Below, one piece after another: positions 34,042 to 53,481 of a stretch of DNA of 64,000 nucleotides. Origin of the DNA: a virus; the IMG/VR virus record IMGVR_UViG_3300044675_001825, positions 1 through 64,000 of that record. One strand, given 5' to 3'. A model generated the notes under the pieces. That model searched no databases. It was not told the DNA's origin and worked only from the letters and a program-made list of their open reading frames with translations. Position 1 is the first letter of the stretch, and each line of letters begins with the position of its first letter. The position numbers were made by a program, and so were the translations under genes.

Positions 34042-35604
34042 ATGGCAATTCAAACAATCCCTGGGTTAACAGGTTTTACTTATGCTCGTGTTGCGTCTAT
34101 GGACAAGCGTGCAGTAGGGAAACTTACAGACTCAAATCACTTAGAGAGTTTTCACTCAACAGAGCCAGCTGATTATGATAAAAAGATTATATCTTTATAT
34201 ACTCAGAGCTCATTGTACAGTAATGACTTCTTGGACATGATCAACAAAAGCACACCTTATTACATCGATAATAATAGTGATGCATGGAAATGGCAAGTAG
34301 CAGTTCCTTACAAATTCCCAAAAATTATTGACATTCCTGCTTCTACGCAAGAATTAATTGATGCTGGTAAAACAGGTATCGATGGTCAAGAATTTAGTTT
34401 AGTATTAGATACTAATGAGTTTTCTAAAAATGCAATTGTATCTGTAGGTACACGTCAGTATGGTCCACGTTTCTACGTGATCAAAGATCCACAACCATGG
34501 AACATGGGTTATCTTTATTCATTTACATTAGTAACTGACAATCCAACAGTTGACTTTGTAAACCCTACATTCTTACAATATGGTGTTGAATTAGAATTAG
34601 TTGATGCTGCTATTGGTGAGTTTGATCAAGACTTATTAGGTCTTCCAAGATTAGGTGAGCAAATCACTATGTTCGAATCATTAGGTTCTGCATATGGATA
34701 TGAGCACAAAATCACTGAGTGGGCTGATGACAAAATGATGAGAGATGCTTCTGGTAAACCATTAGACATTTTAGTTTATGCTCCACAAAGACGTAACCAA
34801 TTACCTTTAACTCGTAATGATGTTAAATGGGAACCATTCATTGAGTTCTGGATGCGTAAGTCAATGTTAGAATTGAAAGTTAAACGTATGATCTGGGCTA
34901 AACCAGGTACAGTTAAAACTAATGGTTCTAAACAAGAATTGAAACGTACATCTGCAGGTGTATACCACAGAATGCGTAACAATGGAAACTTGGTACAATA
35001 CAACAGAGGTGAATTCTCTGCTAACTTGATTCGTTCAGTATTTGGAGACTTGTTCTACAGAAGAGTGGATGTTAAAGACAGAAGTGTAAAAATGTATACT
35101 AATGAGGCTGGATTCGACGTATTCCAACAAGCTTTGAAAACAGATGCATTAAACTCTGGTCTTACGTTCATGGCAGATTCTGGAAACAGATACTTACAAG
35201 GAGAAGGACAACATATCACTTACAACTTTGCATTCGATGCAATGGTAACTCGTGAGACTGGTAGAGTTGAATTGATTCACTTGAAAGAATTAGATTTACC
35301 ACAAACTAACTTAGAGTTTGGACAAAACAAAAAATCTACGCCAGTATTTATGGTGTTTGATGTGTCTCCAATGTCTGATGGTTCAATGGTAAACAACATT
35401 AGAGAAGTACGTATGAAAGGTGCTCCTTCTATGACATGGGGTTATATTGATGGTACTCGTCACCACTTAGGTTTTGCTAAGTCTCAAGGTATGAGTTCAG
35501 CTAACAAATTCCCAGGATACGAAATCTGGATGAAAGACAGATGTGACGTATTTATCGAAGATCTTTCTAGAACTGTGTTGATCGAGGAAATCCCACAATT
35601 CTAA
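34042..35604 (+). CDS. Major capsid protein (crAss-like)
   Basis: 520 aa, highly biased codons, position after scaffold; TDSNHL, YTNEAG motifs. Confidence 0.85.
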   Translation: MAIQTIPGLTGFTYARVASMDKRAVGKLTDSNHLESFHSTEPADYDKKIISLYTQSSLYSNDFLDMINKSTPYYIDNNSDAWKWQVAVPYKFPKIIDIPASTQELIDAGKTGIDGQEFSLVLDTNEFSKNAIVSVGTRQYGPRFYVIKDPQPWNMGYLYSFTLVTDNPTVDFVNPTFLQYGVELELVDAAIGEFDQDLLGLPRLGEQITMFESLGSAYGYEHKITEWADDKMMRDASGKPLDILVYAPQRRNQLPLTRNDVKWEPFIEFWMRKSMLELKVKRMIWAKPGTVKTNGSKQELKRTSAGVYHRMRNNGNLVQYNRGEFSANLIRSVFGDLFYRRVDVKDRSVKMYTNEAGFDVFQQALKTDALNSGLTFMADSGNRYLQGEGQHITYNFAFDAMVTRETGRVELIHLKELDLPQTNLEFGQNKKSTPVFMVFDVSPMSDGSMVNNIREVRMKGAPSMTWGYIDGTRHHLGFAKSQGMSSANKFPGYEIWMKDRCDVFIEDLSRTVLIEEIPQF

Positions 35605-37562: not shown

Positions 37563-38735
37563 ATGGCTGATTTTTCATTAACCACAGTATTCGTGGTTCC
37601 AGTGGGGCAAACTGCACTCCCTAGCTCTGGCTCAACACAAAACTTGACTGCAGGACAAGTAGGTTTCTTTAGAAACGATTATTCAATAGCTACTTCTGCT
37701 AACATTGCTGCTGCACCTTATTTCTACGTAGCACAAGGTAGAACAAACACTTATTTACAAGGATCTAAAAGATCTGACAAGATCAAAGGATGTCCTTCTG
37801 GATCTGGTTGCAACTCAAACGTAACAGAATGGTACAAAGTATCAGGATGTCCTACAGCTGCTAACCAAATCACTGATGTAACTAATTTCACTGTACAATG
37901 TGGAGAAACTATCACGTTAACTTTACGTGCTCACTCTTCTTACATTGATACATTGTATTTTAATGGTTTCACTCGTTCAGTAACAATCCAAGCTCCATGC
38001 TGTGGTTGTGATGAAAATCCATGTGCTGATGTAAGTGACAACACTATCATCAACTTATTGATTGCTAAATTAACACAACAAGCTCCTGGTATCAACCCTG
38101 ATAACATTAGCTTTAATACATTCTTTACATTTGAAAATGTAGGTGGTACAATCTTACGTATTACAGGAAAACCATTAACTCAATATGGACAACCTTGTGA
38201 TATTGCAGCGTTCCCTTTTGAATATGACAGAATGTCTTTCAGAACATTTGTATATGCTGGTCCAGCTACAACTGCTGACTTCATTGTAGCAGATGCTTGT
38301 AACATTGTTGCTAACCCAATCATCACTCAACGTGCTTCTTACGCTACTGGTACATCTGCAGAAATTGCTCAATTAGAGAAAAACTTCTACAGCTACCAAG
38401 CAGGTTACTTGAAACATTTATATAGAATGAATGGGTATAACGAGAACTTTGAATCTTGGGTTTCTGCTGGTACAACTTATGATACATACTACATTAGATT
38501 TAATGAGTATAATAAATCTGAGTACCAATGGGGTGATTACATTATGGAAGATTCAACAGTAATTATTGCTGCTCCGAACTCTGTAACAAGTGGTATTTCT
38601 GCTGCAATCACTACTGTGTTAGAAGCTGCATTAGGTACTGTAGTAGATCAAGGTGTTCCTTGTATCACAACTACAACTACTTCTTCTACTGCTGCTCCAT
38701 CAACAACAACTACTACTTCTACAAACATTCCTTAA
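37563..38735 (+). CDS. Structural protein (probable auxiliary capsid protein) with C-terminal Thr-rich tail
   Basis: Highly expressed codon bias, synteny, ends CITTTTTSSTAAPSTTTTTSTNIP. Confidence 0.55.
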   Translation: MADFSLTTVFVVPVGQTALPSSGSTQNLTAGQVGFFRNDYSIATSANIAAAPYFYVAQGRTNTYLQGSKRSDKIKGCPSGSGCNSNVTEWYKVSGCPTAANQITDVTNFTVQCGETITLTLRAHSSYIDTLYFNGFTRSVTIQAPCCGCDENPCADVSDNTIINLLIAKLTQQAPGINPDNISFNTFFTFENVGGTILRITGKPLTQYGQPCDIAAFPFEYDRMSFRTFVYAGPATTADFIVADACNIVANPIITQRASYATGTSAEIAQLEKNFYSYQAGYLKHLYRMNGYNENFESWVSAGTTYDTYYIRFNEYNKSEYQWGDYIMEDSTVIIAAPNSVTSGISAAITTVLEAALGTVVDQGVPCITTTTTSSTAAPSTTTTTSTNIP

Positions 38736-38766
38736 GAATAAAAGAAGTAAAATTTAAACAATAACC

Positions 38767-38809
38767 TATGCCAGGGGAAAGAGGATAAATCTCATATTCC
38801 TCTGGCATA
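38767..38809 (+). terminator. Long hairpin after structural gene
   Basis: TATGCCAGGGGAA/TTCCTCTGGCATA. Confidence 0.55.
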
Positions 38810-38823
38810 ATTATTATAAAAAC

Positions 38824-39387
38824 ATGGCAAACTTACAATTAGATATATTAGTAATCCCTACTTATAGTGTACTTACACTTGGTGTTACAGATGCTTCTGT
38901 ATATCCTACCAATCCTCCAGTGGTGTCAGCACCTACTATTGAGATTGATATTCCAGGATTTGGAACAACGACATTACCATTCGTTCCTAATGAAATCAAT
39001 GTATTTACATCGTCTAATTTAGGAATCACAGAACCAGATTGTAATCAACCACTTCCAGATGGAATATACAGATTAAGATATTCTGTAGCTCCTGCATATG
39101 CAAATTATGTAGAGAGAACAATATTACGTGTTGATAGACTTCAAGAGAAGTTTGACAATGCGTTTCTTCAATTAAACATGATGGTGTGTGATAGAGCTCT
39201 TAAAACACAATCTAGTGTTATGTTAAACACTATAAACTTCTTTATACAAGGAGCAATTGCAGCAGCTAATAACTGTGCAGAATTTGAATCAAACACATTA
39301 TATGCTCAGGCAGATAATATGTTAAACAACTTTTTAAGAACCAACTGTGGTTGTTCTGGTAACAACTACTTAATAAACTTTTATTAA
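38824..39387 (+). CDS. Structural protein (tail hub-like)
   Basis: LPDGIYRLRYSVAP Ig-like strand, helical C-terminus, CGC end; synteny. Confidence 0.5.
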   Translation: MANLQLDILVIPTYSVLTLGVTDASVYPTNPPVVSAPTIEIDIPGFGTTTLPFVPNEINVFTSSNLGITEPDCNQPLPDGIYRLRYSVAPAYANYVERTILRVDRLQEKFDNAFLQLNMMVCDRALKTQSSVMLNTINFFIQGAIAAANNCAEFESNTLYAQADNMLNNFLRTNCGCSGNNYLINFY

Positions 39388-39389
39388 TT

Positions 39390-39485
39390 ATGGCACAATG
39401 TTCAGGATGTGGAGCTAATGTAGGCTGTGGATGTCAGCTGAAAAATGGAATGTGTGCAGCGTGTGCTGCAAAAGCAAATAAATAA
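39390..39485 (+). CDS. 31-aa six-Cys micropeptide (absent from ORF track)
   Basis: MAQCSGCGANVGCGCQLKNGMCAACAAKANK*; fills the gap exactly between two structural genes. Confidence 0.7.
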   Translation: MAQCSGCGANVGCGCQLKNGMCAACAAKANK

Positions 39486-39495
39486 AATTGTTATT

Positions 39496-39984
39496 ATGTT
39501 ATCACCAAGACTAACCAACTGTCCTGAATGCTCGGACATTCCATCTTTACTTAAAAAAATAGATTGCAAGTTAGCAGAACTTGGTAACAACTTGTACAAC
39601 AATATTTCATATATGTTGAACAAACCTGTGCCTGCTGATGACATAACTCAATTAATAGGATATAGAAGAATATTAATGTACAAGCTTATTAATCCAAACT
39701 ATGCACATAAATATTCTGTAGCTATGATATCTAGTAGAGTGATACGTCTTACAGTGGGATGTATAAGTAGATGTAACACACCAGAACCTTGTATAGAGGA
39801 ACGTTGTGATATAACTATTGTACCAAATCCAACTACCACTACTACTAGCAGTAGTTCTACTAGCTCAACAACAACAAGTACCACTGCAGTACCAACTACT
39901 ACCACTACTAGTTCTAGTAGTTCAACTAGCACAAGCACGTCTACTAGTAGTTCTTCTACAACAACCACTACAACAACAATTTAA
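39496..39984 (+). CDS. Structural protein (hub-like) with about 50-aa poly-Thr/Ser tail
   Basis: Probable start MLSPRLTNC at 39496; C-terminal T/S tract. Confidence 0.65.
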   Translation: MLSPRLTNCPECSDIPSLLKKIDCKLAELGNNLYNNISYMLNKPVPADDITQLIGYRRILMYKLINPNYAHKYSVAMISSRVIRLTVGCISRCNTPEPCIEERCDITIVPNPTTTTTSSSSTSSTTTSTTAVPTTTTTSSSSSTSTSTSTSSSSTTTTTTTI

Positions 39985-40005
39985 AACCTTTTTAAAATAA
40001 ATAAT

Positions 40006-41118
40006 ATGTCAACATGCTCAAATTGTTACAATGGATGTACAGAGATTGTCTCTGACAGATGTGTAAAATATACAGGAATAGATGTTCCTGTCCTAGGAAT
40101 ACAAACAGGTGATTCTTTATCATTTGTAGAACAAGCATTAATTACATTTCTTACATCTACATTAGATGGCACAGGAGTAAAAATTGATCTTGCACCTACA
40201 GTGGTATGTGAGCTTGTACAGCAATATCTTCCAACATGTAAAGATCTTTCTATTGTAGATATATCAAAAGCTCTTGTACAAGCTGCTTGTAATCTTCAAT
40301 TACAAGTGAATGCCATTAATGCTACACTTGCTACATTGAATGCTGATTATACAATTGGATGTTTAACAGGTGTTACAGCATCTTCAGATACACATGCTAT
40401 TCTGCAAGCTGTAATTAACAAGTTGTGTCAAGTACAAGTTGATTTAACAGCATTAACTTTAAACTTATCTACTAATTATTCTAGCAATGGTGCACAACTA
40501 GATGCTTATATAGCTAACTATCTAGCTACAAATACTCCTAGTTCTAATCTTATAAGTAATAGAATGGTTCCTTATGCTGTGGTTGAATACTATGGTCCTA
40601 TTGCTGGTAATTTTGATGGAACAGGTAAAGGACTTGGAATTTGGGATAATATATATTTATGTAATGGATTAAATGGTACACCAGATAAAAGAGGAGTCGT
40701 AGGAGTAGGTGCTACAAATGGTGCAATGTTAGGACTTACAATGCCTTCAGCTACTAATCCATCATTAGGAAATCCTACATATAGTGTAGGTGGATCAATA
40801 ATAGGTAGTAATAATATTGTGTTATCAACGCTCCAAATGCCTAGCCATACACACCTTACAACAGTAACAATTAATGATCCAGGACATGGTCATATTTTTA
40901 GTAATTCTAGTGGAACATCACTTGGAGGTGGTTATATAGCAACAGGAGTTCCAAATGAAGGACCAGGTGCTTTTGGATTAGTTAATAATCAAACAGGATT
41001 AAAAGGAACAGGATCAGGACAAAATGTTTTTGTTACTAATTCTAATGAAGGAGGAGGACTAGCACATCCAAATTTCCAACCTGGATTAGGTTGTTTATAT
41101 ATTCAATACAGACCTTAA
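40006..41118 (+). CDS. Tail fibre/collar-domain protein
   Basis: Cys-rich N-terminus, coiled coil, LCNG.NGTPDKRG, QMPSHTH, H.N.QP tail-collar motifs. Confidence 0.75.
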   Translation: MSTCSNCYNGCTEIVSDRCVKYTGIDVPVLGIQTGDSLSFVEQALITFLTSTLDGTGVKIDLAPTVVCELVQQYLPTCKDLSIVDISKALVQAACNLQLQVNAINATLATLNADYTIGCLTGVTASSDTHAILQAVINKLCQVQVDLTALTLNLSTNYSSNGAQLDAYIANYLATNTPSSNLISNRMVPYAVVEYYGPIAGNFDGTGKGLGIWDNIYLCNGLNGTPDKRGVVGVGATNGAMLGLTMPSATNPSLGNPTYSVGGSIIGSNNIVLSTLQMPSHTHLTTVTINDPGHGHIFSNSSGTSLGGGYIATGVPNEGPGAFGLVNNQTGLKGTGSGQNVFVTNSNEGGGLAHPNFQPGLGCLYIQYRP

Positions 41119-41130
41119 TAAATCAACACG

Positions 41131-41769
41131 ATGTCATATCCTTTTTTACCAGTTAATCCTTGCTGTACAGACGTAGTTTTAAATACTCCTTGTGGATGCA
41201 CTTCTACACTTCCTAATACTGGATGTGAACAAACCCAATGTGGTACTAATGTAATTCTATCTAGCAATGTACTTTATAATGGTCCTGTATTGGATTGCAT
41301 TATAGCTGAGCCATGTGATACACTTAATGTGATATTACAAAAGATCGATGAGATTATATGTAATCTACTTGTTCAGATTAACACATTGAATATTCAAGTA
41401 GCAAACATCACTGGTCAAATAATTAATATTAATAGTCAGATAATTAATATTAATAATACATTAGATGTATGTTGTAATGTTACAACTACTACCACAACCA
41501 CTGCAACACCAACTACCACAACAACTACCACTGTAGTAGAAGAATGTCGTTATTATATTTTAGAAGGAAACATAGCTCCTGGAGTATGGATTGCAACTTT
41601 ATGTGGTTCTAAAGTAGATGATCCAGTTTATGTTGGAGGAGAATTAACTCCAGGACAAACTGAAGAGACACCTTGTATTATACCTTCTACATTAGAACTG
41701 TATGGCGTAAGTATTAAAGTAGACAGAGGAGTATGTCCAACAACAACAACCACCACTACAACACTATAA
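41131..41769 (+). CDS. Cys-rich coiled-coil fibre protein with poly-Thr linkers
   Basis: Y.GP.L.C...DTLN.IL.KID..IC, IININSQ heptads, two T-tracts. Confidence 0.7.
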   Translation: MSYPFLPVNPCCTDVVLNTPCGCTSTLPNTGCEQTQCGTNVILSSNVLYNGPVLDCIIAEPCDTLNVILQKIDEIICNLLVQINTLNIQVANITGQIININSQIININNTLDVCCNVTTTTTTTATPTTTTTTTVVEECRYYILEGNIAPGVWIATLCGSKVDDPVYVGGELTPGQTEETPCIIPSTLELYGVSIKVDRGVCPTTTTTTTTL

Positions 41770-41778
41770 ATATAAAAC

Positions 41779-42453
41779 ATGGCTGATTGTCCTCAAATAA
41801 ATAACACAACAATACTAGGAACGAGTGCTGTCACATACGATAGCACTCCACTTCCTTGTACAGATATAAAAACATGTGATGATCTAAACACGATCCTTGC
41901 TAAGTTTGATAATGTTATATGTTCTGCTATAGATAGTGTAAACATTCTTATAGAAGAAGTAACAAATATCACTGAGGACTTAATGCTTATTACAGAGGAT
42001 GTAGAGACTATAAACAATCAAATCTTTATATGTTGTCCTATTTGTAGTTTTACAATAACTGCTACTGAATTACCTGTGTGTGAGTTTACTGGAACTGCTA
42101 ATCAACTTCCAGATCCTACAACAACTACAACCAGTAGTTCTTCAACCAGTACTTCTACATCAACAAGCACATCTACTAGCACTAGCACATCTACAACAAC
42201 TAGCACTAGTAGTTCAACCACTACAACTACAACTACAAGTATACCATTACTTTGTTTTCAAGCAGAGGTTTATCCTCCAATACTTAATCCAGGAACATAT
42301 CACGTAATACAATATTTAGATTGTAATGGAAACATTCAAGTTGAAAGTGTTCCAGATGGTGGAGAAATGGTAACTATTTGTTATACAGGAATTGTATCAG
42401 ATAACAATAATGGTGTAACCATTCCTTTATATACTTATTGTATAGCAACTTAA
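41779..42453 (+). CDS. Cys-rich fibre protein with T/S linker and YLDCNG domain
   Basis: Paralogous N-terminus to 41131 (DDLNTILAKFDNVIC). Confidence 0.7.
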   Translation: MADCPQINNTTILGTSAVTYDSTPLPCTDIKTCDDLNTILAKFDNVICSAIDSVNILIEEVTNITEDLMLITEDVETINNQIFICCPICSFTITATELPVCEFTGTANQLPDPTTTTTSSSSTSTSTSTSTSTSTSTSTTTSTSSSTTTTTTTSIPLLCFQAEVYPPILNPGTYHVIQYLDCNGNIQVESVPDGGEMVTICYTGIVSDNNNGVTIPLYTYCIAT

Positions 42454-42466
42454 TAAACCAAATAAT

Positions 42467-43015
42467 ATGACAGTATTAATAACATTAACAGTAGCAGGTT
42501 CAGATTCTGGACCATTTAATCTCTATTCAAATCTTGATGGATATACATCAGCATTTGAAGCAGGAGTACCTAAAGCATCATTGCTTGCAGGATATTCTTC
42601 TGCATTAGTTCCTGACTTTACAACAACTATTAGAATACAATCTGTAGGGGATTGTACTAACCACATTGACATACCACTGTATGCCACTACAACAACAAGT
42701 AGTAGTACAAGTAGCACAAGTAGTACAACAACAAGTACTACTACTATTGCTAATACTTGTTATGCATTCCAGAGTGATCCATACACTACAACATTTACAG
42801 CTCAATATATAGATTGTAATGGTGTTATTCAAACAGTTAATGATACATGTTTCTCTCCACCTTGTACATATACACTGTGTGGATTTTCTGTTTTATCTAG
42901 TAGTGAACTTATGAGTATTATAGGAGTTTGTACAACAACCACAACAACCACAGCTGCACCTACTACAACAAGTACTACTACAGCTGCACCAACCACAACT
43001 ACAACTACTACTTAA
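42467..43015 (+). CDS. Decoration protein: GPFNLYS domain + T/S linker + YIDCNG domain + T tail
   Basis: See modular family finding. Confidence 0.7.
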   Translation: MTVLITLTVAGSDSGPFNLYSNLDGYTSAFEAGVPKASLLAGYSSALVPDFTTTIRIQSVGDCTNHIDIPLYATTTTSSSTSSTSSTTTSTTTIANTCYAFQSDPYTTTFTAQYIDCNGVIQTVNDTCFSPPCTYTLCGFSVLSSSELMSIIGVCTTTTTTTAAPTTTSTTTAAPTTTTTTT

Positions 43016-43034
43016 TTATATAATAAATAAAAAC

Positions 43035-43631
43035 ATGACAATATTAATAACATTGGTTTTACCACCTGGTGGGGACGCAGGTCCTTTCAATCTTTATTCA
43101 GATACAGATGGATACGTTGTTGCATTTGCAACAAATATATCTGCTTCAGCTTTAATTGCTGGATATACAGCTACAAACGTACCTGATGGAACAACTATAA
43201 TTAAAGTACAGTCTGTAGGAGTGTGTACAAACTTTGTTAATGTACCAGTGAATGTGCTTCCTACTACAACTACAACAAGTTCTAGTAGCACATCTACCAC
43301 TACAAGTACTAGTACCACTGCTGGTCCAACTACCACTACAACTAGTAGTAGTTCAACAAGCACAAGTACTTCTACAAGCACAAGTACATCAACTAGCACT
43401 TCTACAAGCTCAACCACCAGTACATCTACAACATCAGTTCCTACCACTACTACCACAACTAGTCTTGGTGCATGTACAAAATATAACACTGATGGTCTAG
43501 ATACAATAAATTATATAGATTGTAATGGTGATCCTCAAACAATTGTAAACATTGAAATTGATTTTTGTGCACAAGCTGGTACAGTAACAGGTACTGGTGT
43601 AAGTATAATTACACCAAACGATTGCGTATAA
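43035..43631 (+). CDS. Decoration protein paralog: GPFNLYS domain + about 65-aa T/S linker + YIDCNG domain
   Basis: N-terminal 75 aa clearly paralogous to 42467. Confidence 0.7.
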   Translation: MTILITLVLPPGGDAGPFNLYSDTDGYVVAFATNISASALIAGYTATNVPDGTTIIKVQSVGVCTNFVNVPVNVLPTTTTTSSSSTSTTTSTSTTAGPTTTTTSSSSTSTSTSTSTSTSTSTSTSSTTSTSTTSVPTTTTTTSLGACTKYNTDGLDTINYIDCNGDPQTIVNIEIDFCAQAGTVTGTGVSIITPNDCV

Positions 43632-43678
43632 TAATTTTATAAAATAAAAAATCATAGTTTGTTGGTTTTCTGTGATTT

Positions 43679-43710
43679 CTCCTCAAGATCTTCTTGGGGA
43701 GTTTTTGTTT
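43679..43710 (+). terminator. Rho-independent terminator
   Basis: CTCCTCAAGA/TCTTGGGGAG plus T-tract. Confidence 0.75.
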
Positions 43711-43711
43711 C

Positions 43712-43787
43712 TAACTAATTTAGTTATAAATAATTAGAGCTCTAACTAGAATTATTTGGAATATATAAAAACTATTATTTATCTTTA
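43712..43787 (+). promoter_or_regulatory. Promoter with palindromic operator
   Basis: TAACTAA-T-TTAGTTA palindrome (43712-43726), TTG 43756, TATCTTTA 43780-43787. Confidence 0.6.
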
Positions 43788-43815
43788 CAATATTTTTTAA
43801 CTAATATGAATATAT

Positions 43816-45036
43816 ATGTCTGAAAATCAAAGCTTATTAGGTCAATTGGAGGAATTGCTGACAATGAAAAGAAGTAAAAAATTCTATGCTGAAAGACTTG
43901 GAATAAGCGAATTTGAAGTTAATGAGCTCTTAAAGGAGCTTAGAGAAAAGGACAATTATCAAAACGTAGAAGGAAAAAACTACACAGAAGAACGAAAAGT
44001 AAATGTTGAAAAGGGTACAATAGAAAGTACAATCATATCTGATTTTGATCCTAAAGATGATCTTGAACTAGCTAAGCTACACAAGATAAACCTAGACAAG
44101 TATGTCATCACAAACTACTGGTCTAAGATGCTACCAAGTGGGAAGTTCACTTCCTCAGTCTTTTCTAAGAGAAAAGAAGCAAAAGATTACTCCCCTGAAG
44201 ACTTTGCTAAATTTTTAGAGAATTATATTCCTAATAACATAAGAGTTATTAATAAACCAGTATTAGATGAAGAAAGTTTAGTGGATGTTGAATTATCTTT
44301 ATCTGATTATCATTTAGCTAAAAAAGTTGTAGATGGAGATAATTGTCCATTTAAAAGAGCTTCAAACTATTTAAAAATAGTGGAAGATTTAATTACCAAA
44401 ATAAGAAAAAATTATAGTATTGAACATATAGTTTTTCCTATAAGTAACGATTTTTTTCATACTGACAATTATCAAAACCAAACTACAAATGGAACTCCTC
44501 AAGATACCATCCTTGAATATCATTCTGAATATGAATTAGGATTTTCTTTATTAGTAGATACTATTAATACATTAAGAGATCATTGTAAAAGTGTTACAGT
44601 AGTTTTAGTACAAGGTAATCATGACAGGACTAAATCTTTTTATTTAGCACATGCATTAGAAGTTTTCTTTAAAAAAGATTATGATGTAAACTTTATAAGA
44701 GAACATAGTGTAGTAAAAGCAGTAGTATTAGGAAATACATTTATAGGATATCATCATGGTAACTGTAAAATAGATGATTTGCCTTTATTATTTGCAACTC
44801 ATCCTGAATATAGTTCTTATTTTGGAGAAGCTAAATATAGAGAAATCCATACAGGAGATAAGCATCATTACATGGCTAAAGAAATAAAAGGAGTAAGAAT
44901 ACAACAAATGCCAAGTCTTTCATTTACAGATAGATGGCATATGGATAATAACTTTGTACATTCAATTAGAGCAGCATTAGCACTTGTTTATGATAAAGAA
45001 ACAGGAAAAATTGCAGAATTTGAATCAAGAATATAA
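43816..45036 (+). CDS. Calcineurin-like metallophosphoesterase with N-terminal HTH
   Basis: LSDYH, NDFFH, QGNHD, YHHG, TGDKHH; AERLGISE HTH. Confidence 0.85.
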   Translation: MSENQSLLGQLEELLTMKRSKKFYAERLGISEFEVNELLKELREKDNYQNVEGKNYTEERKVNVEKGTIESTIISDFDPKDDLELAKLHKINLDKYVITNYWSKMLPSGKFTSSVFSKRKEAKDYSPEDFAKFLENYIPNNIRVINKPVLDEESLVDVELSLSDYHLAKKVVDGDNCPFKRASNYLKIVEDLITKIRKNYSIEHIVFPISNDFFHTDNYQNQTTNGTPQDTILEYHSEYELGFSLLVDTINTLRDHCKSVTVVLVQGNHDRTKSFYLAHALEVFFKKDYDVNFIREHSVVKAVVLGNTFIGYHHGNCKIDDLPLLFATHPEYSSYFGEAKYREIHTGDKHHYMAKEIKGVRIQQMPSLSFTDRWHMDNNFVHSIRAALALVYDKETGKIAEFESRI

Positions 45037-45041
45037 ATAAT

Positions 45042-45770
45042 ATGGCAACATTAAGAAAGTTAGTATCAGATGTTAGAAGTGTCCACAAGATACTTTCGAC
45101 TGACTCATTAATAACAGATCGTGCAATTGCATCTGAAATAAGAAATAACTCTTTGTTATTAATCAAACGTGAGACAAACCTTAGAAAACTTTGGGCAACT
45201 GATACATTGTTCACTACAATTCCTTGTTTAGAGATGGTAGAAGTACCCATCTCTGAATGTTGTAACTATGTAGATGAGTGTAGTATTGCAAGAACTAAGT
45301 TTAAACTTCCACGTATATCAGAAGGTAATTACCAATATGTAATACAAGGAGTTTATTCTATCAATGCATTAGGTGGCCAAGGAAAGAAGTTAAAAGAGAT
45401 CACTGTCAATAGATATATCAATCTACTAAAGCTTCCTATAATTAAGAAAGAAGAATACTTCTGGATATCTAATGGATATCTATACGTAAATAATCCATTG
45501 CTAAAATCAATCAGGTTTGTAGCATTGTTTGAAGAAGATGTAGAGAATGAAATCATGTATCCAGAATGTGGATGTGGTTCTCCTGATTATACAAATGAAC
45601 AACTATGTATGAACCCATTAGACAAAGAGTTTGCTCTTCCAGGATATCTAGAACAACAAGTGTTACAGCTTACATCACAAAAACTTCTTTCTACTTACTT
45701 CAATATTAAAACAGACATAAGTCAAGAAGGAATAGATGGCCAAGCACCAAACTCAAAACCAACTAATTAA
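45042..45770 (+). CDS. Tail ring protein (crAss-like)
   Basis: MATLRKLVSDV, IPCLEM..V, RT..KLP, NGYLY; synteny. Confidence 0.6.
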   Translation: MATLRKLVSDVRSVHKILSTDSLITDRAIASEIRNNSLLLIKRETNLRKLWATDTLFTTIPCLEMVEVPISECCNYVDECSIARTKFKLPRISEGNYQYVIQGVYSINALGGQGKKLKEITVNRYINLLKLPIIKKEEYFWISNGYLYVNNPLLKSIRFVALFEEDVENEIMYPECGCGSPDYTNEQLCMNPLDKEFALPGYLEQQVLQLTSQKLLSTYFNIKTDISQEGIDGQAPNSKPTN

Positions 45771-46249
45771 TGAGAACAAAGGTTGATTGGAGAAGTTCTA
45801 GCAAGGACAGTTATAATAGTTTCTGTAAAAAACATCCATCTGTAAAACTAACATATGATGAATGGAGAAACGTCTTATACACCTACAATGAATCTTTTAA
45901 AGAATACATATTAGAAACAGGAGAGAAGGTAAAGCTTCCTTTTGGATTTGGAGAGTTCTCAATCAACAAGAAGAAAAGAAGAAAACTAAAGAACAATGTA
46001 GATGGTAAAGAGTTTGTTAATCTTCCCATAGATTGGCAAAAGACCAAAGAGAAAGGAAAGGTGATATATAACTTCAACTACCATACAGAAGGTTATTTTT
46101 TTGGTTGGATGTGGTTTAAGAACACAGCACGCTTCAAGAACTCTGATCTATGGTATTTCAAACCTTCTAGACTAACATCAAGACTTCTGTCACATTACTT
46201 AAAGACCAACGACAAGTATCAATACATCTACAATGAATGGAAAAAATAA
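45770..46249 (+). CDS. IHF/HU-like basic protein
   Basis: VKLPFGFGEF, IDWQKT, N.HTEGY; position as in crAss-like phages. Confidence 0.6.
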   Translation: MRTKVDWRSSSKDSYNSFCKKHPSVKLTYDEWRNVLYTYNESFKEYILETGEKVKLPFGFGEFSINKKKRRKLKNNVDGKEFVNLPIDWQKTKEKGKVIYNFNYHTEGYFFGWMWFKNTARFKNSDLWYFKPSRLTSRLLSHYLKTNDKYQYIYNEWKK

Positions 46250-46255
46250 TGAACT

Positions 46256-47230
46256 ATGTCATACTACTATAAATACAATTTCGTATCCCCAGAGCCTGTC
46301 TATTCAACAGTTAAAGAAGAATTAAAGTCTTACTTTGACACTGGTGCAGTGGATGATCTTTTATTCCCTACCTACTTAGACAAATGTCTCAAGAAGTTAG
46401 GAAGAACTACATTTGTAATAAGTGAAGAGATCTTATATATAGAAGACTTTGAAGCTAGACTTCCTGATAACTTTTATGCTGTTAGAGAAGCTTGGATGTG
46501 TACAGCAGTGAATGGTTTTCCATATCAAGATGCTAACTCATTCTATTCACAAGCAGCCAATGCAACAACTATTCAGGTGTCTCCATTAACTATTGGAGGT
46601 ACTCCTTGTACTAATCCTGGTTGTCAGAATTCAGCTTGTGATGGTACATGTATGCCAACATTAGTACAAGCTGTATACAAAACAAATAATAGTACACCTA
46701 GACAGTTTGTTCATGAGTATTTACTTAGACCTGGTAATATATCTGCAAGACAAAACTGTGGTGTAGATTATACAAGTGCTTGGGAATTCTATGCTGAAGC
46801 TCCTCCTATTCATGAATTTACTCCTGGTGCTGCCAGTTATGACTCATTTGATATTAGAGACAATAAGTTTGTAACCAACTTCAGAAATGGTGTTGTTCAC
46901 TTGTTGTTCTATGCTACAGAGTATGATGAGATAGGGAACCAAATGATTCCTGATAACTATCGTATAAGAGAATATGTAGAAGCATTCATTAAGTTCAAAG
47001 TGTTTGAGATGCTTACTAACCAAACTAATGATGAAACATTCAATCAGTTACAACAAAAGATGTTATATCACAAGCAAGCATATGAAGAAGCATACATCAT
47101 GGCTGAGATTGAAATGAAGAAACAATCTCCTTGGGAAAAACAAAGAAGAATCAAAAATGATCTTAACAGATTTAATATGTATGAGCTTCCTAATCGTACT
47201 AACAGGTATGGTAGAAGACGTAATAATTAA
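46256..47230 (+). CDS. Tail ring/tubular protein
   Basis: ARLPDNF, TNFRNG.V.L.Y...DE.G..MIPD; precedes the muzzle gene. Confidence 0.6.
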   Translation: MSYYYKYNFVSPEPVYSTVKEELKSYFDTGAVDDLLFPTYLDKCLKKLGRTTFVISEEILYIEDFEARLPDNFYAVREAWMCTAVNGFPYQDANSFYSQAANATTIQVSPLTIGGTPCTNPGCQNSACDGTCMPTLVQAVYKTNNSTPRQFVHEYLLRPGNISARQNCGVDYTSAWEFYAEAPPIHEFTPGAASYDSFDIRDNKFVTNFRNGVVHLLFYATEYDEIGNQMIPDNYRIREYVEAFIKFKVFEMLTNQTNDETFNQLQQKMLYHKQAYEEAYIMAEIEMKKQSPWEKQRRIKNDLNRFNMYELPNRTNRYGRRRNN

Positions 47231-47238
47231 TACACATC

Positions 47239-50200
47239 ATGGCTGAAGAACAATCAAAAAATAACATAACTCAACATCTTGGCACTGCAATTACTGGTTT
47301 AAACTTAGATAGCTCTGTAAATCAAGTTAAACAGGGTTCATTAACCTATGCGTTAAATGCTGCAATTGAAAATTTTGATGGTAACATAGTTAACTATCAA
47401 AATGAAATGGGTAATGATTTATGTGTCACTTTTCCAAAATCTTATTTACTAATTGGTACTCATTTCATTAATGAGAAGAATAAACATATATTCTTTCTTG
47501 TAAATCCTTTGACATCAATGAGTCAAATTGGATACATGGAAAACAATGATTGTATCTATCACGTATTAGTAGAAGCTGCATGTCTTAATTTTAATGTTAA
47601 TAATCCTATACATAAAGTAGTACATAAGATTACAAACTGTACTATAGAGATATATTGGACAGATGGTTTAAACCCAAGAAGATGGTTAGATATAAATAAC
47701 ATTCCTTATTTATTGAAACCTGGAGCAGACCTTTGTGATCCTGAATATACAGACCAATTAGATTGTAACCAACTTAAGATACAACCTAATTTTAGTATTC
47801 CTCAACTTAAAGTTGTAGATGTTAGATCTGGAGGAGAACTTGTATCAGGAACTTATCAGTTTGCTATACAATATTGTGACCCTGTTGGTAATCCATATAC
47901 TTCTTACTACTCAGTAACAAACCCTACTCCTATAGCAGATTTAACAATAGCCACTGTAAATTTCAACACTCCTGTAAGTAAATCTATTGTAGTGGATATA
48001 ACAGATCTTGATGTTACAGGACAGTTTCAATATTATAATGTAGCTGTAATCAAAACAATCAATAATGTTTCATCTGTTGAGTTAGTAGGTACCTATTTTA
48101 TTGAACAAAACTACGATCAAATTATATATACTGGAGAGGATCAAACTGCAATACAATTAACTATTGCTGATATATTTGAGAAGTTTCCTTATTATGAAAT
48201 AGCACAAGATCTTACATCTGTACAAGATATTCTTGTATGGGACAACCTTACATCTATTAATAGAATCAACTATCAATCAATAGCTAGTCAAATAGATGTT
48301 CAGTGGGAAACATATAGAATACCTGCTAATGAAAGTTATGAAGATGAATTGAACGCAACCAATCTACGTGGGTACCTACGTGATGAGGTGTATGCACTTG
48401 AGATTGTATTCCTATTAAAGAATGGAAAACAAACAGATGGTTTCCACATTCCTGGAAGAGAACAAAACTTTAATGAGTTCTCTCAACCAGATATACCTGA
48501 TACAAGTGCTGACTTTATTGGTGAGCCTGATTACTATTCAGGTGGTGTAGGATATAGTCCTTATTGGAAAATATATAACACTGCTTCTGTTACTGGATTT
48601 TCTCCAGGATATTCTCCTAGCCCTACTTACAAAGGAGCATATCAGTATGGTCAAATGGCTTATTGGGAATCTACAGAAGAGTATCCTTGTAATGTAGATC
48701 TTTGGGGTGATCTTGCTGGTAAAAATATCAGACATCACAAGTTTCCAGATGTATTAGTTTCTCCTATAAATGAATCACAGATATTTTCAGGACCTACATC
48801 AATGGTGATGGGTAATGATGCTGTATTTCCTATTGGTATTAAAATAGACATTGGTCAGATATCAAATCTTATATACAACTCTAATTTAACTGATGATGAA
48901 AAGAGTGAGATAGCAGGGTTTAAAATCATTAGAGGTAACAGAGGAGTACATAAATCTATCATAGCTAAAGGGATACTTCGTAATGTTAACTCTTATATAA
49001 GAGAAGACCAGTACTACTACTATCCAAATTACCCATATAATGAAACAGGTCCTGACGTTGATCCATTCTTAAATGAGGTGAATAACGCATGGACAGAAAT
49101 ATGTGAACCATGGGAGATTAATGTAATGGAATTTAATTTACCTGAAGGTCCTGGTCCATATACATATGCAGAGGTTGAATTTACCAATTGTAATAATGAT
49201 AAACCTGATAAACAAAAGTTTACTACATTAGGTAAACATACATTGTGTTCTATTAGTAGACCTATACCACAAGGTGTTGGTCCATTCAATAGAATGAAGC
49301 TTAGAAGAGGAGATACTGAAGAACCTACTCCTGGAACAAAAGTGAATGTGTCTCCAATGAATTATGATGTTTATAAACTTGAAGTTAAGAAAAATAGACT
49401 TGGACTTCCTAGAGCTGGATGGAGAGCTCAATGGGAAGACACAGTGACAGGAGTAACTGATTTTTGGGTATGCTGTGGAAGAAGTTATTTTGTTAATTGT
49501 ATAAAAGGAACTCGACCAGTTAGCGTACAGAATGATACTGATATAATTACTTTAGATAAAGAAGTTAGAGTGCCTGATTGTAAAACTCCAGTTCCTCAAA
49601 AACCTATATCTGATAAACCAGAACTAGCATACAGACAAGTATTTAATTCTCCTGAAACATCATTTGGACAACCTTTCTTAGGTGATATATTAAAGATTGA
49701 GAATGTGATGTTTGGTAAAGGACTTGGTCACTTTGTTGAAGTGAGAGGTAATGCTAAATATAAACTTCTTACAGAAGAAGCACAAAGAGATGCTCTTCAG
49801 GCTTCACAAAATATTGGTAGTATTTCTAGTGGATTCAATGCAACAGCAATGTTCACTGTATACCAATCATATCTAACTATTTATATCAATGGTATTACAA
49901 GAAGAAACTATGCTTATTCATATAACTCAATAGCTGATTATAATTATAATGTAGGAGTGGGTAATGATATTACAGTGAATGGTGTTAGAGGTATTAAGCA
50001 AAGACCACTTGACATTAAGAGATATCTTATCCCTGGAGTACAATCTGTTGGTGATACAATTAATGTTACTGTTGGTGGAACAACTGTAGTTAAAAACGCT
50101 CCTATCAACAATTATAGAAGAGAGTCAACAGTTTATTTAAGAACAGATCTTGATAAACCAGCATTACCATTACCAAGTAATAGTCCTAGTATGATTGTAG

Positions 50201-52611
50201 GAGGTTCTTCTATTGTTACAGAAAAATCTAGAATAACCATTGGATCAAGTGGAGCATGTGCTAAACCAGCTTTAGAACAAGACATTAGTGTTGTATCTTA
50301 TTATGCATCACTAAAGAATGTAGTGGTGAATCAATGGGGACAAATATATTCATATAGAACAGTAGACACAGGGTTCCAATCACCTATCAATCCTATTTCA
50401 ACAGGATCTACAACAGTGTTTGGTGGAGATACATTTATAGGTAGGTTTACATTTAAAACTAAACTTCCTTTCTTTATTGATAATAGAGTGAATGCTCCTG
50501 ATGATTCAGACATATTTTATGATGAGATTGGTAATGTGGCCTACCCAACATTCTGGCATTCTGCTCGATCTATATTAAAAGACTACACTGTAACACCAGG
50601 AGCCATAGGAACATTGTCTAATATTATTTCATACAAAGCTCATAACTTTGATTGTCCTAATAATCAAGAGCCTGGACCAACATCAACCCCTTCTTTTCCA
50701 GGACAAGATAATCCTAATAGAACATACTATAATGGATACTTCTATTTGTTTGCTTATGGTATTCCTAACTTCTATTGTGAGAGTTCTTATAACACAGATT
50801 TAAGACAAGCATTTAATAATAGAGAAGGTGATTTCTGGCCACACGTATCAACAGGTATTCCTGATGATTGGGTACAGGAGAACTACGTATCAATTGCATT
50901 TGATAATACGTACAACTATAATGTAACATTCTCTAAACAAAACAAAGAGAATAAATTTACTAGTCTACCTGCAGACTGGAAAAAAGACTTCTGTTTCACG
51001 TACTATCCATTCAGAACTATCTATTCAGATTCTCAGAATATAGATTCTGACAATAGAGTGAATAGCTGGTTGACATATAGATCAGTTTCATATTTTGATT
51101 TTCCTCAAAACTTTGGTAACTTAATATCATTAGATGGTATTCAGAACAAAGCTATCCTTGCTAGGTTTGAGAATAAGTCATTGTTATACAATACGTTATT
51201 AACAATTGATACAAGTAATCCACAGGCTGCTTATTTAGGTAACCCTTCTTTATTTAGAAGTTCTCCTCCAGTAGACTTTGCTGAAACAGATCTTGGATAT
51301 GTAGGAAGTCAGAATAAGTTCTTATTGAAGATTCCTCAAGGCCAAATTACCGTAGATGCTAAACGTGGACAAGTATTTTTACTTGGTAGTAATGGAGCAA
51401 AAGATCTTACATCGTTCTCTTCAGGGATGAATAACTTCTTTACAAACCATTTAGCGTTTGAGATTCTTAGATATTTCCCAAGTAAGGACGTAATGGTAAA
51501 TGGTAAACTAGTTACTATTCCAGGAGTTGATGTAGATAATAACTTCACTGGTATTGGACTACATGGTGTATATGATAACAGATACGAAAGAATCATCATA
51601 ACTAAACTTGATTATATTCCTGTAGATCCTGCTGTTAAGTATGACTATATAACAAAAGAATTCTATGTAGAAGAACCTATTGTTGGAAGTGCTCCACTTA
51701 GAGTGGTTGTAAGTTTACAAGATCCTGATTACTTCTGTAACAAGTCTTGGTCAGTTTCTTATAACTTCAACACACAAAGCTGGATATCATTCCATAGCTA
51801 CATTCCTAATTTCTATATAGGAGAAAACAATTTCTTCTATTCAGGAATCAATGGATGTTGTGATGATTTTGATTTTGTGGCAGGACCAATTGTTCCTAAT
51901 GCTCCAACAACAACTACAACATCTACTAGTCCTGGACCAACAACCACTACTACATCAACTACTACTGGGTTTAATTGTAACTTAGCTGGAAGTGTTGTAA
52001 TAACTAATTGTTTTTTATCTGGTAATGGTATAATTACAGTGCCACCAGCACCTCCACCTTGTACAAGACCTACAAACTTATCAGAAGATGATTTTGTTAT
52101 TGGATATACAATAACATCTATACCAATAACTGTAGTTTCTACAGGTAGTCAATCAGATGCTTGTAATGCAATTACTTATTTAAATAGTATTCCACCAAAC
52201 ACTACAATTAATGAAATAACAGGAAGTTATTCAAGTCTTAGTATTGGATCAACAATTTATGCAGGCTCAAGCTTTAATACAGATTGTACAGTGATTCCTG
52301 ATGGATGGTATTTTACAAATGAAAGTTCATATTATGGAATAGTTTATCAAGTGGTGAGTGGAGCAATTGCACAAATACAATCATGTTTCCCAACCACTAC
52401 AACAACTAGTACAGCACATCCTTGTATATCATACACAGCTATTAAAACAACAGTGGGTGTAGTTATAATAGATTATACAGACTGTACAGGAGCACCAGCA
52501 ACTGTAACTGTTGGACTTCCAGCAGGAGGACCTTCATCAGTTACTTTCTGTGCAAGATGTTGTGTATCCACTCAACCAAATGTAACATTAACTAGTAATG
52601 GAAACTGTTAA
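47239..52611 (+). CDS. Muzzle/tail stabilization protein (N-terminal part) with appended Thr-rich and Cys domains
   Basis: GLN.D, YALNA, IYWTDG.NP.R, G.YQFA..Y, GYLRDEVY, FGGDTFI, GYVGSQ, WISFHSY.P; C-terminal T-tracts and YTDCTG domain. Confidence 0.75.
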   Translation: MAEEQSKNNITQHLGTAITGLNLDSSVNQVKQGSLTYALNAAIENFDGNIVNYQNEMGNDLCVTFPKSYLLIGTHFINEKNKHIFFLVNPLTSMSQIGYMENNDCIYHVLVEAACLNFNVNNPIHKVVHKITNCTIEIYWTDGLNPRRWLDINNIPYLLKPGADLCDPEYTDQLDCNQLKIQPNFSIPQLKVVDVRSGGELVSGTYQFAIQYCDPVGNPYTSYYSVTNPTPIADLTIATVNFNTPVSKSIVVDITDLDVTGQFQYYNVAVIKTINNVSSVELVGTYFIEQNYDQIIYTGEDQTAIQLTIADIFEKFPYYEIAQDLTSVQDILVWDNLTSINRINYQSIASQIDVQWETYRIPANESYEDELNATNLRGYLRDEVYALEIVFLLKNGKQTDGFHIPGREQNFNEFSQPDIPDTSADFIGEPDYYSGGVGYSPYWKIYNTASVTGFSPGYSPSPTYKGAYQYGQMAYWESTEEYPCNVDLWGDLAGKNIRHHKFPDVLVSPINESQIFSGPTSMVMGNDAVFPIGIKIDIGQISNLIYNSNLTDDEKSEIAGFKIIRGNRGVHKSIIAKGILRNVNSYIREDQYYYYPNYPYNETGPDVDPFLNEVNNAWTEICEPWEINVMEFNLPEGPGPYTYAEVEFTNCNNDKPDKQKFTTLGKHTLCSISRPIPQGVGPFNRMKLRRGDTEEPTPGTKVNVSPMNYDVYKLEVKKNRLGLPRAGWRAQWEDTVTGVTDFWVCCGRSYFVNCIKGTRPVSVQNDTDIITLDKEVRVPDCKTPVPQKPISDKPELAYRQVFNSPETSFGQPFLGDILKIENVMFGKGLGHFVEVRGNAKYKLLTEEAQRDALQASQNIGSISSGFNATAMFTVYQSYLTIYINGITRRNYAYSYNSIADYNYNVGVGNDITVNGVRGIKQRPLDIKRYLIPGVQSVGDTINVTVGGTTVVKNAPINNYRRESTVYLRTDLDKPALPLPSNSPSMIVGGSSIVTEKSRITIGSSGACAKPALEQDISVVSYYASLKNVVVNQWGQIYSYRTVDTGFQSPINPISTGSTTVFGGDTFIGRFTFKTKLPFFIDNRVNAPDDSDIFYDEIGNVAYPTFWHSARSILKDYTVTPGAIGTLSNIISYKAHNFDCPNNQEPGPTSTPSFPGQDNPNRTYYNGYFYLFAYGIPNFYCESSYNTDLRQAFNNREGDFWPHVSTGIPDDWVQENYVSIAFDNTYNYNVTFSKQNKENKFTSLPADWKKDFCFTYYPFRTIYSDSQNIDSDNRVNSWLTYRSVSYFDFPQNFGNLISLDGIQNKAILARFENKSLLYNTLLTIDTSNPQAAYLGNPSLFRSSPPVDFAETDLGYVGSQNKFLLKIPQGQITVDAKRGQVFLLGSNGAKDLTSFSSGMNNFFTNHLAFEILRYFPSKDVMVNGKLVTIPGVDVDNNFTGIGLHGVYDNRYERIIITKLDYIPVDPAVKYDYITKEFYVEEPIVGSAPLRVVVSLQDPDYFCNKSWSVSYNFNTQSWISFHSYIPNFYIGENNFFYSGINGCCDDFDFVAGPIVPNAPTTTTTSTSPGPTTTTTSTTTGFNCNLAGSVVITNCFLSGNGIITVPPAPPPCTRPTNLSEDDFVIGYTITSIPITVVSTGSQSDACNAITYLNSIPPNTTINEITGSYSSLSIGSTIYAGSSFNTDCTVIPDGWYFTNESSYYGIVYQVVSGAIAQIQSCFPTTTTTSTAHPCISYTAIKTTVGVVIIDYTDCTGAPATVTVGLPAGGPSSVTFCARCCVSTQPNVTLTSNGNC

Positions 52612-52614
52612 GCT

Positions 52615-53481
52615 ATGTCAAAAACTATCTCTATAAAGCTAACACAAGCAGGACCTACTGCAGGACCCTTCAATATCTATGACCAATTTGGAAATGTGAT
52701 AGCTGAAGGTGTATCTAGAAAAACTCTTGTGAGAGGCATAAGCTATATTGTAAATAATGATGTAACAATCATCACTATTAAATCTACTGGTAAATGTAGA
52801 TCAGAGAAGAGCGTTCCTGTTGAAGATATAACAGTATCGAATTACACAAGTATAAAGTTAGTTCAAACTGTAACAGCATGTGTATGGACACATTTACTTA
52901 ATATAAGAAACTATAACACCTTCTATGGAAACATAGAACCATACATCATTGAATATCCTTTTGCTTATAAGTTCCAAGATGAGATATTGCAGAACGTAGT
53001 TGACTACACTAAGGCATATGATTATTTTCCTATTCCTGATGGTGTGTTTAATGCTAACACAAGAATAGAAACAAATGATAAATACTTCAATAAAGCTGTT
53101 CTATATAATGGACAACAGAGTTCTGGTCTTCTTGAGCTTGTAGCAAAACCATTAAATAATTTGCAAGCATATAATCAATATCCTATCTTTAACGCTGATA
53201 GTAAAACCATTACATATACTAAGAGTGATAACTTCTATCAGTACAATACATTCTGGGCTTTAGAGAAAAGCTCTCAGATTCCATTATTCAATAGAACATG
53301 TGAAAGCTTATCAATTGATAAAGTGATAAATCAAGACAACATGGACTATGGAACAAGAAGCTTCAAGAAATCTCCTCTAAGAGCAAAAGAATTAAAAATT
53401 CGTCACATCTTAGATTCATCAAGTACTACTCATCTTGTTTCACAATTTATCCTGGGAGTAGCACAAATCTCATACAAATAA
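52615..53481 (+). CDS. GPFNIY domain fused to probable C-terminal part of muzzle protein
   Basis: N-terminus homologous to 42467/43035; then VWTH...NTFYG..PYIIEY, FNKAVLYN.QQSSG.L.L. Confidence 0.6.
   Translation: MSKTISIKLTQAGPTAGPFNIYDQFGNVIAEGVSRKTLVRGISYIVNNDVTIITIKSTGKCRSEKSVPVEDITVSNYTSIKLVQTVTACVWTHLLNIRNYNTFYGNIEPYIIEYPFAYKFQDEILQNVVDYTKAYDYFPIPDGVFNANTRIETNDKYFNKAVLYNGQQSSGLLELVAKPLNNLQAYNQYPIFNADSKTITYTKSDNFYQYNTFWALEKSSQIPLFNRTCESLSIDKVINQDNMDYGTRSFKKSPLRAKELKIRHILDSSSTTHLVSQFILGVAQISYK

Follow-up and report, generated by a model that had tools for sequence, protein, structure and literature searches.

Why do seven structural genes of one uncultured phage, among them genes for a capsid protein and for the tail tip, carry long runs of threonine and serine codons, and what acts on the residues they encode? 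The genes lie at 37563-52611 in the window analyzed here, the first 64 kb (positions 1 to 64,000) of the IMG/VR record IMGVR_UViG_3300044675_001825 (G000), which is linear, 77,456 bp long and ~67% complete. An earlier note on this DNA had proposed that the threonine/serine (T/S) tracts are possibly O-glycosylated stalks that cover the virion and display small cysteine-rich domains. Our reading keeps much of this proposal and moves some of it: we consider, with a probability of roughly 0.6, that these proteins are built of anchors and T/S spacers with display modules, and that the tracts are likely O-glycosylated by phage enzymes.

The locus is the structural module of a freshwater crAss-like podophage. 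The crAss-like assignment follows from capsid and muzzle proteins matching PF23898 and PF25731, ring proteins 1 and 2, the fold of the auxiliary capsid protein (AUX), and synteny with crAss001, in which the order is likewise AUX, two hub-position genes, ring protein 2 (R2), ring protein 1 (R1) and muzzle. Near-identical DNA turns up in 14 metagenome runs from lakes or fresh water. IMG/VR contains 478 relatives of ring protein 1, and 80 related loci, at 78-98% ring protein 1 identity, were fetched and underlie the per-gene and per-module counts below; complete relatives with direct terminal repeats (DTR) measure 110-116 kb. Among 50,697 cultured phage records there was no match for the region (megablast), or for AUX or the A domain described below (tblastn), and the best cultured matches of the muzzle are Leptolyngbya phage Lbo-JY46 (35%) and Cellulophaga phages phi17:2 and phi4:1 (28%).

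Threonine/serine tracts and the proteins that carry them

Tracts occur in the genes starting at 37563 (AUX), 39496, 41131, 41779, 42467, 43035 and 47239 (muzzle), as the earlier note had listed them, and no T/S tract was found in any other real gene of the record; counted as ORFs, the tract bearers number eight, all at 37563-52611. The pattern (ACN)5(WSN)2 has 20 matches on the + strand and none on the − strand or in a reversed control. Tract codons are mixed (ACA 79, ACT 70, AGT 35, ACC 25, TCT 18, AGC 14, TCA 11) and DNA identity among tracts is only 60-75%, so the tracts are not simple microsatellites. They are also kept gene by gene in the related loci, being present in AUX (40/42), the gene of the 39445 open reading frame (ORF; 37/55), 41131 (58/64), 41779 (46/56), 42467 (64/91), 43035 (39/39) and the muzzle (64/74), and absent from the major capsid protein (MCP), 38824, 40006, exonuclease, R1, R2 and 52615 families. 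Their length is highly variable, for example 10-158 amino acids in the 41131 family. These observations support the earlier claim that the tracts are features selected at the level of protein, and its placement of tracts on core virion proteins holds for AUX, by fold, and for the muzzle, by Pfam match.

When the 404 tract-bearing proteins of the 80 loci were cut at their tracts, 934 globular segments were obtained, forming 105 clusters, 55 of them with at least three members. Five segment types always stand first: a fibre N-terminus (110), the A domain (108), the muzzle body (58), the N-domain of 39496 (44) and AUX (29). B-type and other modules, including a Fib_succ_major domain, are always in the middle or last, with up to eight modules in one protein. 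The plan is thus an anchor followed by repeated units of a T/S linker and an exchangeable display module. Anchors are widely shared (54-77 of 80 loci), any given B module much less so (only 5-17), and the small Cys-rich domains that the tracts had been said to link are swapped between close relatives. A uniform coating of the virion with display domains does not survive the comparison: AUX ends in a tail of ~20 amino acids with no module, and the display modules belong to the fibres, the A-domain proteins and the tail tip.

The A domain, recognized earlier by its GPFNLY motif, is a real family of ~70 amino acids with significant pairwise alignments among 42467, 43035 and 52615 (E 5e-27, 6e-11 and 3e-8); its relatives are exclusively viral, with no named protein among them. 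Pairwise BLAST hits between copies of the B domain (YxDCxG) are weak (E ~1e-3); an iterated hidden Markov model (HMM) from any one of the copies in the window nevertheless recovers the other three at E 1e-9 to 1e-19, which establishes the family while correcting its consensus to C-x17-YxDCxG-x17-C-x17-C, with four conserved cysteines in 55-60 amino acids. The HMM search that had been suggested for it found 207 copies, grouping into 88 clusters at 70% identity, across the 80 loci, and in 1.84 billion representatives the profile matched 578 proteins, mostly with 2-10 copies each. T/S tracts accompany 86 of the top 149 matches, and the other 63 have PT-type linkers or none. Structure prediction, likewise proposed in the note, yielded a confident five-strand all-beta AlphaFold2 model (pLDDT 87.3), and the predicted fold recurs in uncharacterized proteins of uncultured phages (TM 0.73-0.81). 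MAFFT overlaid A and B as if they were one fold, an idea dropped at an hhalign probability of 0.3%, and searches of Pfam, PHROG and NCBIfam gave nothing useful for the A, B or AUX proteins. Because the B modules are very variable and swapped between close relatives, they most likely bind host or environmental surface ligands; this binding role would follow from the pattern of anchors and exchange.

The tracts contain no Asp, so the motif D-(S/T)-(A/I/L/V/M/T) of general O-glycosylation in Bacteroidota, which acts on exported proteins, is absent from them. Judged by eye, the virion protein sequences show no N-terminal signal-like segment, and any modification of the tracts must therefore be cytoplasmic and phage-encoded. 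The earlier note had argued from the periplasmic location of O-glycosylation in Bacteroidota, which rests on an assumed host.

Tandem Repeats Finder (TRF) reports imperfect short-period arrays within tracts, and some lake-metagenome contigs join one T/S tract to another (window 38720-43411). One such joint, from 41762 to 42215 and seen in three runs, loses a net 438 nt in frame, with flanking sides of only 21-24 nt. Such joints could reflect either genuine variants that have lost a module or chimeras made in assembly. That the tracts serve as recombination sites is a weak idea, since the flanking sides are so short and tract DNA has no long exact repeats.

A candidate poly-threonine glycosyltransferase and a variable enzyme island

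The record is colinear with a complete relative, G001, except that it lacks the ~31 kb matching G001 46.7-77.9 kb. This incompleteness accounts for the earlier statement that no glycosyltransferase (GT) is visible. Beside PhoH and RecA within the missing stretch lies an island of GTs and methyltransferases (MTs; L094:6180-8156, L101-L105; G001-G007), present in 7/7 near-complete relatives, which answers the note's proposal to look for GT co-occurrence in related genomes. It holds two or three small GTs or MTs that vary between genomes otherwise 80-90% identical: MT, GT2 and GT11; GT6 and an FkbM MT; GT2 and MT; two GT2; or a GT32-like gene and GT2. The enzymes are small, soluble (no membrane segment) and DxD-bearing. 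GT11 is not universal in the lineage, occurring in 2/7 near-complete genomes and one 78%-complete record.

The same missing stretch contains an ORF of 338 amino acids assigned to phrog_4417, a family that PHROG labels "unknown function" (G001 60224-61240; L094:224-1237). It is present in 7/7 near-complete relatives at 85-93% identity. It was not found in Lbo-JY46, phi17:2 or FpV4, three phages with no GT2 and no more than one match to the T-tract pattern. In G001 it is surrounded by a second cluster of Thr-tract genes at 58-62 kb. The appendage genes of this second set (57.3-61.7 kb; L093:17271-L094:1735) share the N-terminus MAIPSRxIGWST; one gene has a Fib_succ_major domain (PF09603, E 2e-39), one has a B domain, and in each of two ~78-amino-acid proteins half of the length is a Thr tail.

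Linkage of phrog_4417 to poly-Thr extends to unrelated phages. Full-length homologs occur in 77 of the 50,697 cultured phage records, and in 6/6 cultured phages inspected the homolog adjoins poly-Thr or Thr-rich virion genes. In Enterococcus phage phiFL1A Thr tails terminate both the major head and the major tail protein; in Lactococcus phage 1706 T9-10-HHD stands at the ends of the capsid and major tail proteins; and in Clostridium phage FA88 Thr tails are carried by ORF11, which lies just upstream of the gene for the major capsid protein, and by a protein at the tail-tube position. The other three are Staphylococcus phage vB-SscS-F1, with Thr tracts in tail-module proteins, Lactobacillus phage SAC12B, with TTV(K/A)P repeats in an Ig-domain protein, and Chryseobacterium phage MA9V-3, with T/S tracts in two adjacent proteins. 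We also note that in SAC12B (L113:10686-11979) an annotated holin, like the Ig-domain protein near the phrog_4417 homolog, ends in Thr-rich repeats of the TTV(A/K/E)P type, which is unexpected for a virion-coating role. The reverse question was put to 80 IMG/VR loci chosen solely by an (ACN)10 pattern, 66 of which hold a real poly-Thr ORF. A phrog_4417 homolog was present in six, each time directly downstream on the same strand.

Seven divergent members of phrog_4417 (28-33% identity to the G001 protein) have 34 invariant residues, including YxDSD and HxAG. The DxD motif (Y106-x-D108-S109-D110) follows a hydrophobic strand. YxDSD with a later invariant His is the usual metal/nucleotide-sugar site pattern of GT-A enzymes. 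In an ESM-Atlas feature search phrog_4417 was weakly linked (10% share) to clusters with PF23452 (HPAT); this lead was not confirmed by HMMs, by phmmer or profile searches of the PDB, or by precomputed Pfam annotation of 120 homologs.

Taken with the linkage of tracts to enzymes, modification, most likely O-glycosylation, is the best explanation of the tracts. The particle-built domain comes first in each protein (AUX, the hub-position protein, the trimeric-fibre N-termini, the A domain or the muzzle body), the tracts serve as extended spacers, and phage enzymes most likely O-glycosylate them in the cytoplasm. On this proposal, drawn from gene linkage, phrog_4417 would start the modification and the strain-variable island of soluble GTs and MTs would extend the glycan, all of these enzymes being encoded in the ~31 kb outside this contig. 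We would give about even odds to a more specific form, in which phrog_4417 is a family of cytoplasmic poly-threonine O-glycosyltransferases that builds, with the variable island, mucin-like stalks carrying exchangeable four-Cys binding modules, the result being a glycocalyx in a non-actinophage whose glycan and module repertoires both diversify.

Several points weigh against this reading. Both phrog_4417 and the GT island lie off this contig, so their presence is deduced from colinear relatives at 84-93% identity, and within the crAss-like phages the co-occurrence of tracts and enzyme amounts effectively to one lineage set against three outgroups. Only 6/66 of the blindly chosen poly-Thr loci show a phrog_4417 homolog in the fetched flank. 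The putative GT activity of phrog_4417 is suggested by motifs, the ESM-Atlas lead and gene linkage; the protein has no match in Pfam (even at E 10), in NCBIfam, or in phmmer and profile searches of the PDB, and a direct search with the HPAT HMM (PF23452) was empty. Phage GTs can, moreover, also modify DNA or the host envelope. On the side of the anchors and modules, the AlphaFold2 model of AUX has moderate confidence (pLDDT 62), and the predicted B structure has no significant solved match (Foldseek best E 0.35 in the PDB) and no characterized one in BFVD; a wide VIA search reached at best Z 4.5, with Ena1C, jelly-roll and PA-IIL lectin (Z 4.0) hits that are within noise, so a binding role for B is an analogy. 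Sugar transfer, disulfide formation and ligand binding are what we infer from these genes.

The most serious competitor, which we hold to be unlikely though it deserves attention, takes the tracts to be unmodified flexible spacers comparable to PT or collagen-like linkers, with the island and phrog_4417 acting on the host envelope, DNA or small molecules. It draws some strength from the 63 of 149 top B-domain proteins that manage with PT-type linkers or none, and from the strain-variable GT content, which resembles that of host-surface-modifying morons; the GT11-like gene is itself filed by PHROG as "moron/auxiliary". A thymidylate-synthase-type hydroxymethylase (PF00303), which would have pointed to DNA glycosylation, was not found in five complete genomes; this leaves other DNA routes possible. 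What counts against plain spacers is that phrog_4417, repeatedly and in phages unrelated to each other, directly adjoins poly-Thr virion genes of its own strand, and that it is absent from the tract-less relatives. A role as linker only is further disfavored because in phiFL1A, 1706 and FA88 the capsid and tail-tube subunits end in pure Thr runs that connect nothing.

It is a good deal less probable that the tracts are modified otherwise, for example by phosphorylation, or that phrog_4417, instead of being a transferase, helps Thr-tailed proteins in assembly or as a chaperone. Such a role would suit a protein that matches no GT HMM and has only its motifs and the 10%-share ESM-Atlas lead to speak for it; against it stand the fit of the invariant YxDSD and later His to a GT-A site and the co-occurrence of bona fide GT2, GT11, GT6 and GT32-like genes and sugar-type MTs in every complete relative. 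Finally, the tracts could be neutral by-products of replication slippage or artefacts of assembly, as the TRF arrays and the lake contigs that break and join at tracts might suggest. This we regard as extremely improbable and already contradicted, given that the tracts follow the coding strand and frame (20 matches against 0) with mixed codons, are carried by the same genes across 80 loci while neighboring genes have none, and recur in independent complete DTR genomes and in the 14 lake runs.

If poly-Thr together with phrog_4417 does mark glycosylation, the modification would become predictable from the genomes of phages of Firmicutes and Bacteroidota and of abundant aquatic crAss-like phages, and a large family of unlabelled function would gain a testable activity, with phiFL1A and Lactococcus phage 1706 as cultured models. 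The variable GT island and the shuffled display modules would then form a new axis of phage surface variation, with consequences for adsorption and the stability of particles, for grazing or immune recognition, and for phage surface engineering.

The structural module and its split muzzle

The crAss-like structural module runs on the + strand from 27988 on, with the large terminase and portal genes inside it and the MCP at 34042-35604 (PF23898, E 1e-28). AUX (37563..38735) carries its T/S tail at amino acids 369-387 (nt 38667-38723). The top Foldseek match of its predicted structure is 7qof_a (E 6e-9, probability 1.0, TM 0.45-0.50), a chain of 333 amino acids, the length of phicrAss001 gp36, as which it is identified; gp36 occupies an outer-layer position (PMC10172136). 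The tail, 9-21 amino acids long in orthologs, is modeled at pLDDT <50 and has no module attached.

Two genes at the positions of the crAss001 tail-hub proteins follow. The first (38824..39387, tail-hub protein A position) encodes a virion structural protein (phrog_31752, E 8e-7) with no tract here or in any of 46 homologs. The second (39496..39984, tail-hub protein B position) consists of a 111-amino-acid Cys-containing N-domain and a T/S tail of ~50 amino acids (nt 39829-39978); its relatives carry 0-3 modules beyond the tract. The longest ORF begins at 39445, and relatives align from M18, which is 39496, so the start is probably the one written in the note. Profiles built for AUX, 38824 and 39496 had no hit among PDB sequences, and the last two are candidate hub proteins on the strength of gene position. 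Of the core-protein labels that the note had used, auxiliary capsid and muzzle are accordingly backed by fold and by Pfam, and hub by synteny only.

The next gene (40006..41118) is tail-fibre-like (PHROG 8763 and 8469, E 4e-12 and 3e-9) and without a tract, as are all 73 of its homologs. It precedes two tract-bearing genes with paralogous N-termini (E 4e-17), Cys-rich and heptad-like, a pair missing from the note; the shared N-terminus looks like a trimeric fibre stem. In 41131..41769 this N-terminus, with its Cys cluster, is followed by a T tract (41482-41532), a 69-amino-acid Cys module and a T8 tail (41740-41763), and in 41779..42453 by a 41-amino-acid T/S tract (42118-42240) and a B domain (42241-42450). 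The 41131-type N-domain comes first in all 110 relatives, which have 1-8 modules each. The two A-domain genes are 42467..43015, with A domain (42467-42685), T/S tract (42686-42745), B domain (42746-42931) and a T/AAP tail (42932-43012), and 43035..43631, with A domain (43035-43262), a 68-amino-acid T/S tract (43263-43463) and B domain (43464-43628). None of the 931 homologs of 42467 is named.

Between these decoration genes and R2, within the structural module, stands a DNA-repair exonuclease gene (43816-45036; phrog_704, E 2e-51). FpV4 has an exonuclease gene at the corresponding place. R2 (45042), an IHF-like gene and R1 (46256) follow, all on the + strand; the Pfam matches for ring proteins 1 and 2 are PF25702 (E 1.5e-16) and PF24228 (E 8e-11).

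The muzzle gene is, by alignment to related coding sequences (CDS), cut into two ORFs by an inserted cassette (window 51846-53481). The first ORF (47239..52611, + strand; PF25731 crAss_MUZ, E 4e-34) comprises the muzzle body, amino acids 1-1537, and the cassette: a T/S tract (51907-51966), a 140-amino-acid module, a second T/S tract (52393-52413), a B domain (52417-52608) and a stop. After a gap of 3 nt, the second ORF (52615..53481, + strand) restarts with an A domain (amino acids 1-~88) and continues as the muzzle's C-terminal part (amino acids 89-285), which matches positions 1589-1780 of the 1783 of phrog_15100. In Lbo-JY46, phi17:2 and FpV4, where the muzzle is a single CDS, its homology to 47239 stops at amino acid 1537 of the latter; residues 37-1537 of 47239 and 88-283 of 52615 lie back to back on one Lbo-JY46 CDS, and in FpV4 and MT837925 the two pieces likewise adjoin within one CDS (tblastn). 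In crAss001 the muzzle forms a hexamer at the tail tip, and its crass domain accommodates insertions at the surface (PMC10172136).

Comparison with known systems

To our knowledge mycobacteriophages are the only phages whose virions have been shown to be glycosylated, and our literature searches returned no description of poly-Thr tails or linkers on phage virion proteins. O-glycosylation of the virion is described for mycobacteriophages Che8, Corndog and Myrna (Freeman et al. 2023, as relayed in PMC12619734 and PMC11256854). As relayed there, this is the closest published parallel: the GTs are self-encoded, abundant virion subunits bear an added tag at the C-terminus that serves as acceptor, and a glycan shield or surface layer is proposed. 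In the present phage a Ser/Thr-rich tag is found on AUX and six further virion proteins, on the MCP there is none, and the tags sit on AUX, fibres and tail tip; in the mycobacteriophages, according to the same sources, they are on the major capsid and tail tube. The two cases also differ in host, lineage and enzymes, which here would be phrog_4417 and the variable GT2/GT11/GT6/GT32-like island, proposed from genes alone, and in that the tags of our phage are long T/S-only tracts doubling as linkers for display modules.

For the particle itself the nearest model is phicrAss001, which has gp36 as auxiliary capsid protein, gp21 and gp29 as head fibres, trimeric fibres docked on the hub, and gp44 as a muzzle hexamer bearing lineage-specific insertions (Bayfield et al. 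2023, PMC10172136). The gene order and the AUX fold are the same, appendages are anchored N-terminally and carry small beta domains at the distal end, insertions at the surface are accommodated by the muzzle, and disulfides occur in the phicrAss001 virion (PMC10172136). Unlike the phage described here, crAss001 has no T/S tracts and no A or B domains, and its muzzle is unsplit.

Glycosylated S/T-rich sequence is familiar from bacteria. Cellulase linkers, for instance, are O-glycosylated and Ser/Thr-rich. The S/T-rich intrinsically disordered regions of streptococci are similar low-complexity spacers between folded domains, glycosylated for extension or protection (PMC12041528). Bacterial S/T linkers are, however, modified outside the cytoplasm by host systems, whereas a cytoplasmic and phage-encoded activity is required here. 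HPAT (GT95) and SGT1 (GT96), peptidyl O-glycosyltransferases of plants and algae, are brought to mind by the ESM-Atlas link and by the extended repetitive acceptor peptides on which both would act; they differ in lacking an HMM-level match to phrog_4417 and in their acceptors, Hyp or Ser-Hyp motifs rather than Thr.

Chloroviruses and mimivirus decorate capsid or fibril proteins by means of cytoplasmic virus-encoded GTs and sugar MTs, with glycans that vary by strain, although these are giant viruses of eukaryotes with other acceptor motifs and enzymes. Among phages, the Ig-like decoration protein Hoc of T4 illustrates how small exposed beta domains give weak adhesion (the "BAM" model), and in Streptococcus thermophilus phages collagen-like repeats flank exchangeable receptor-binding domains. 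The B domain is set apart from these by having no significant match to Ig or other solved folds, and its linkers are built of T/S rather than Gly-X-Y.

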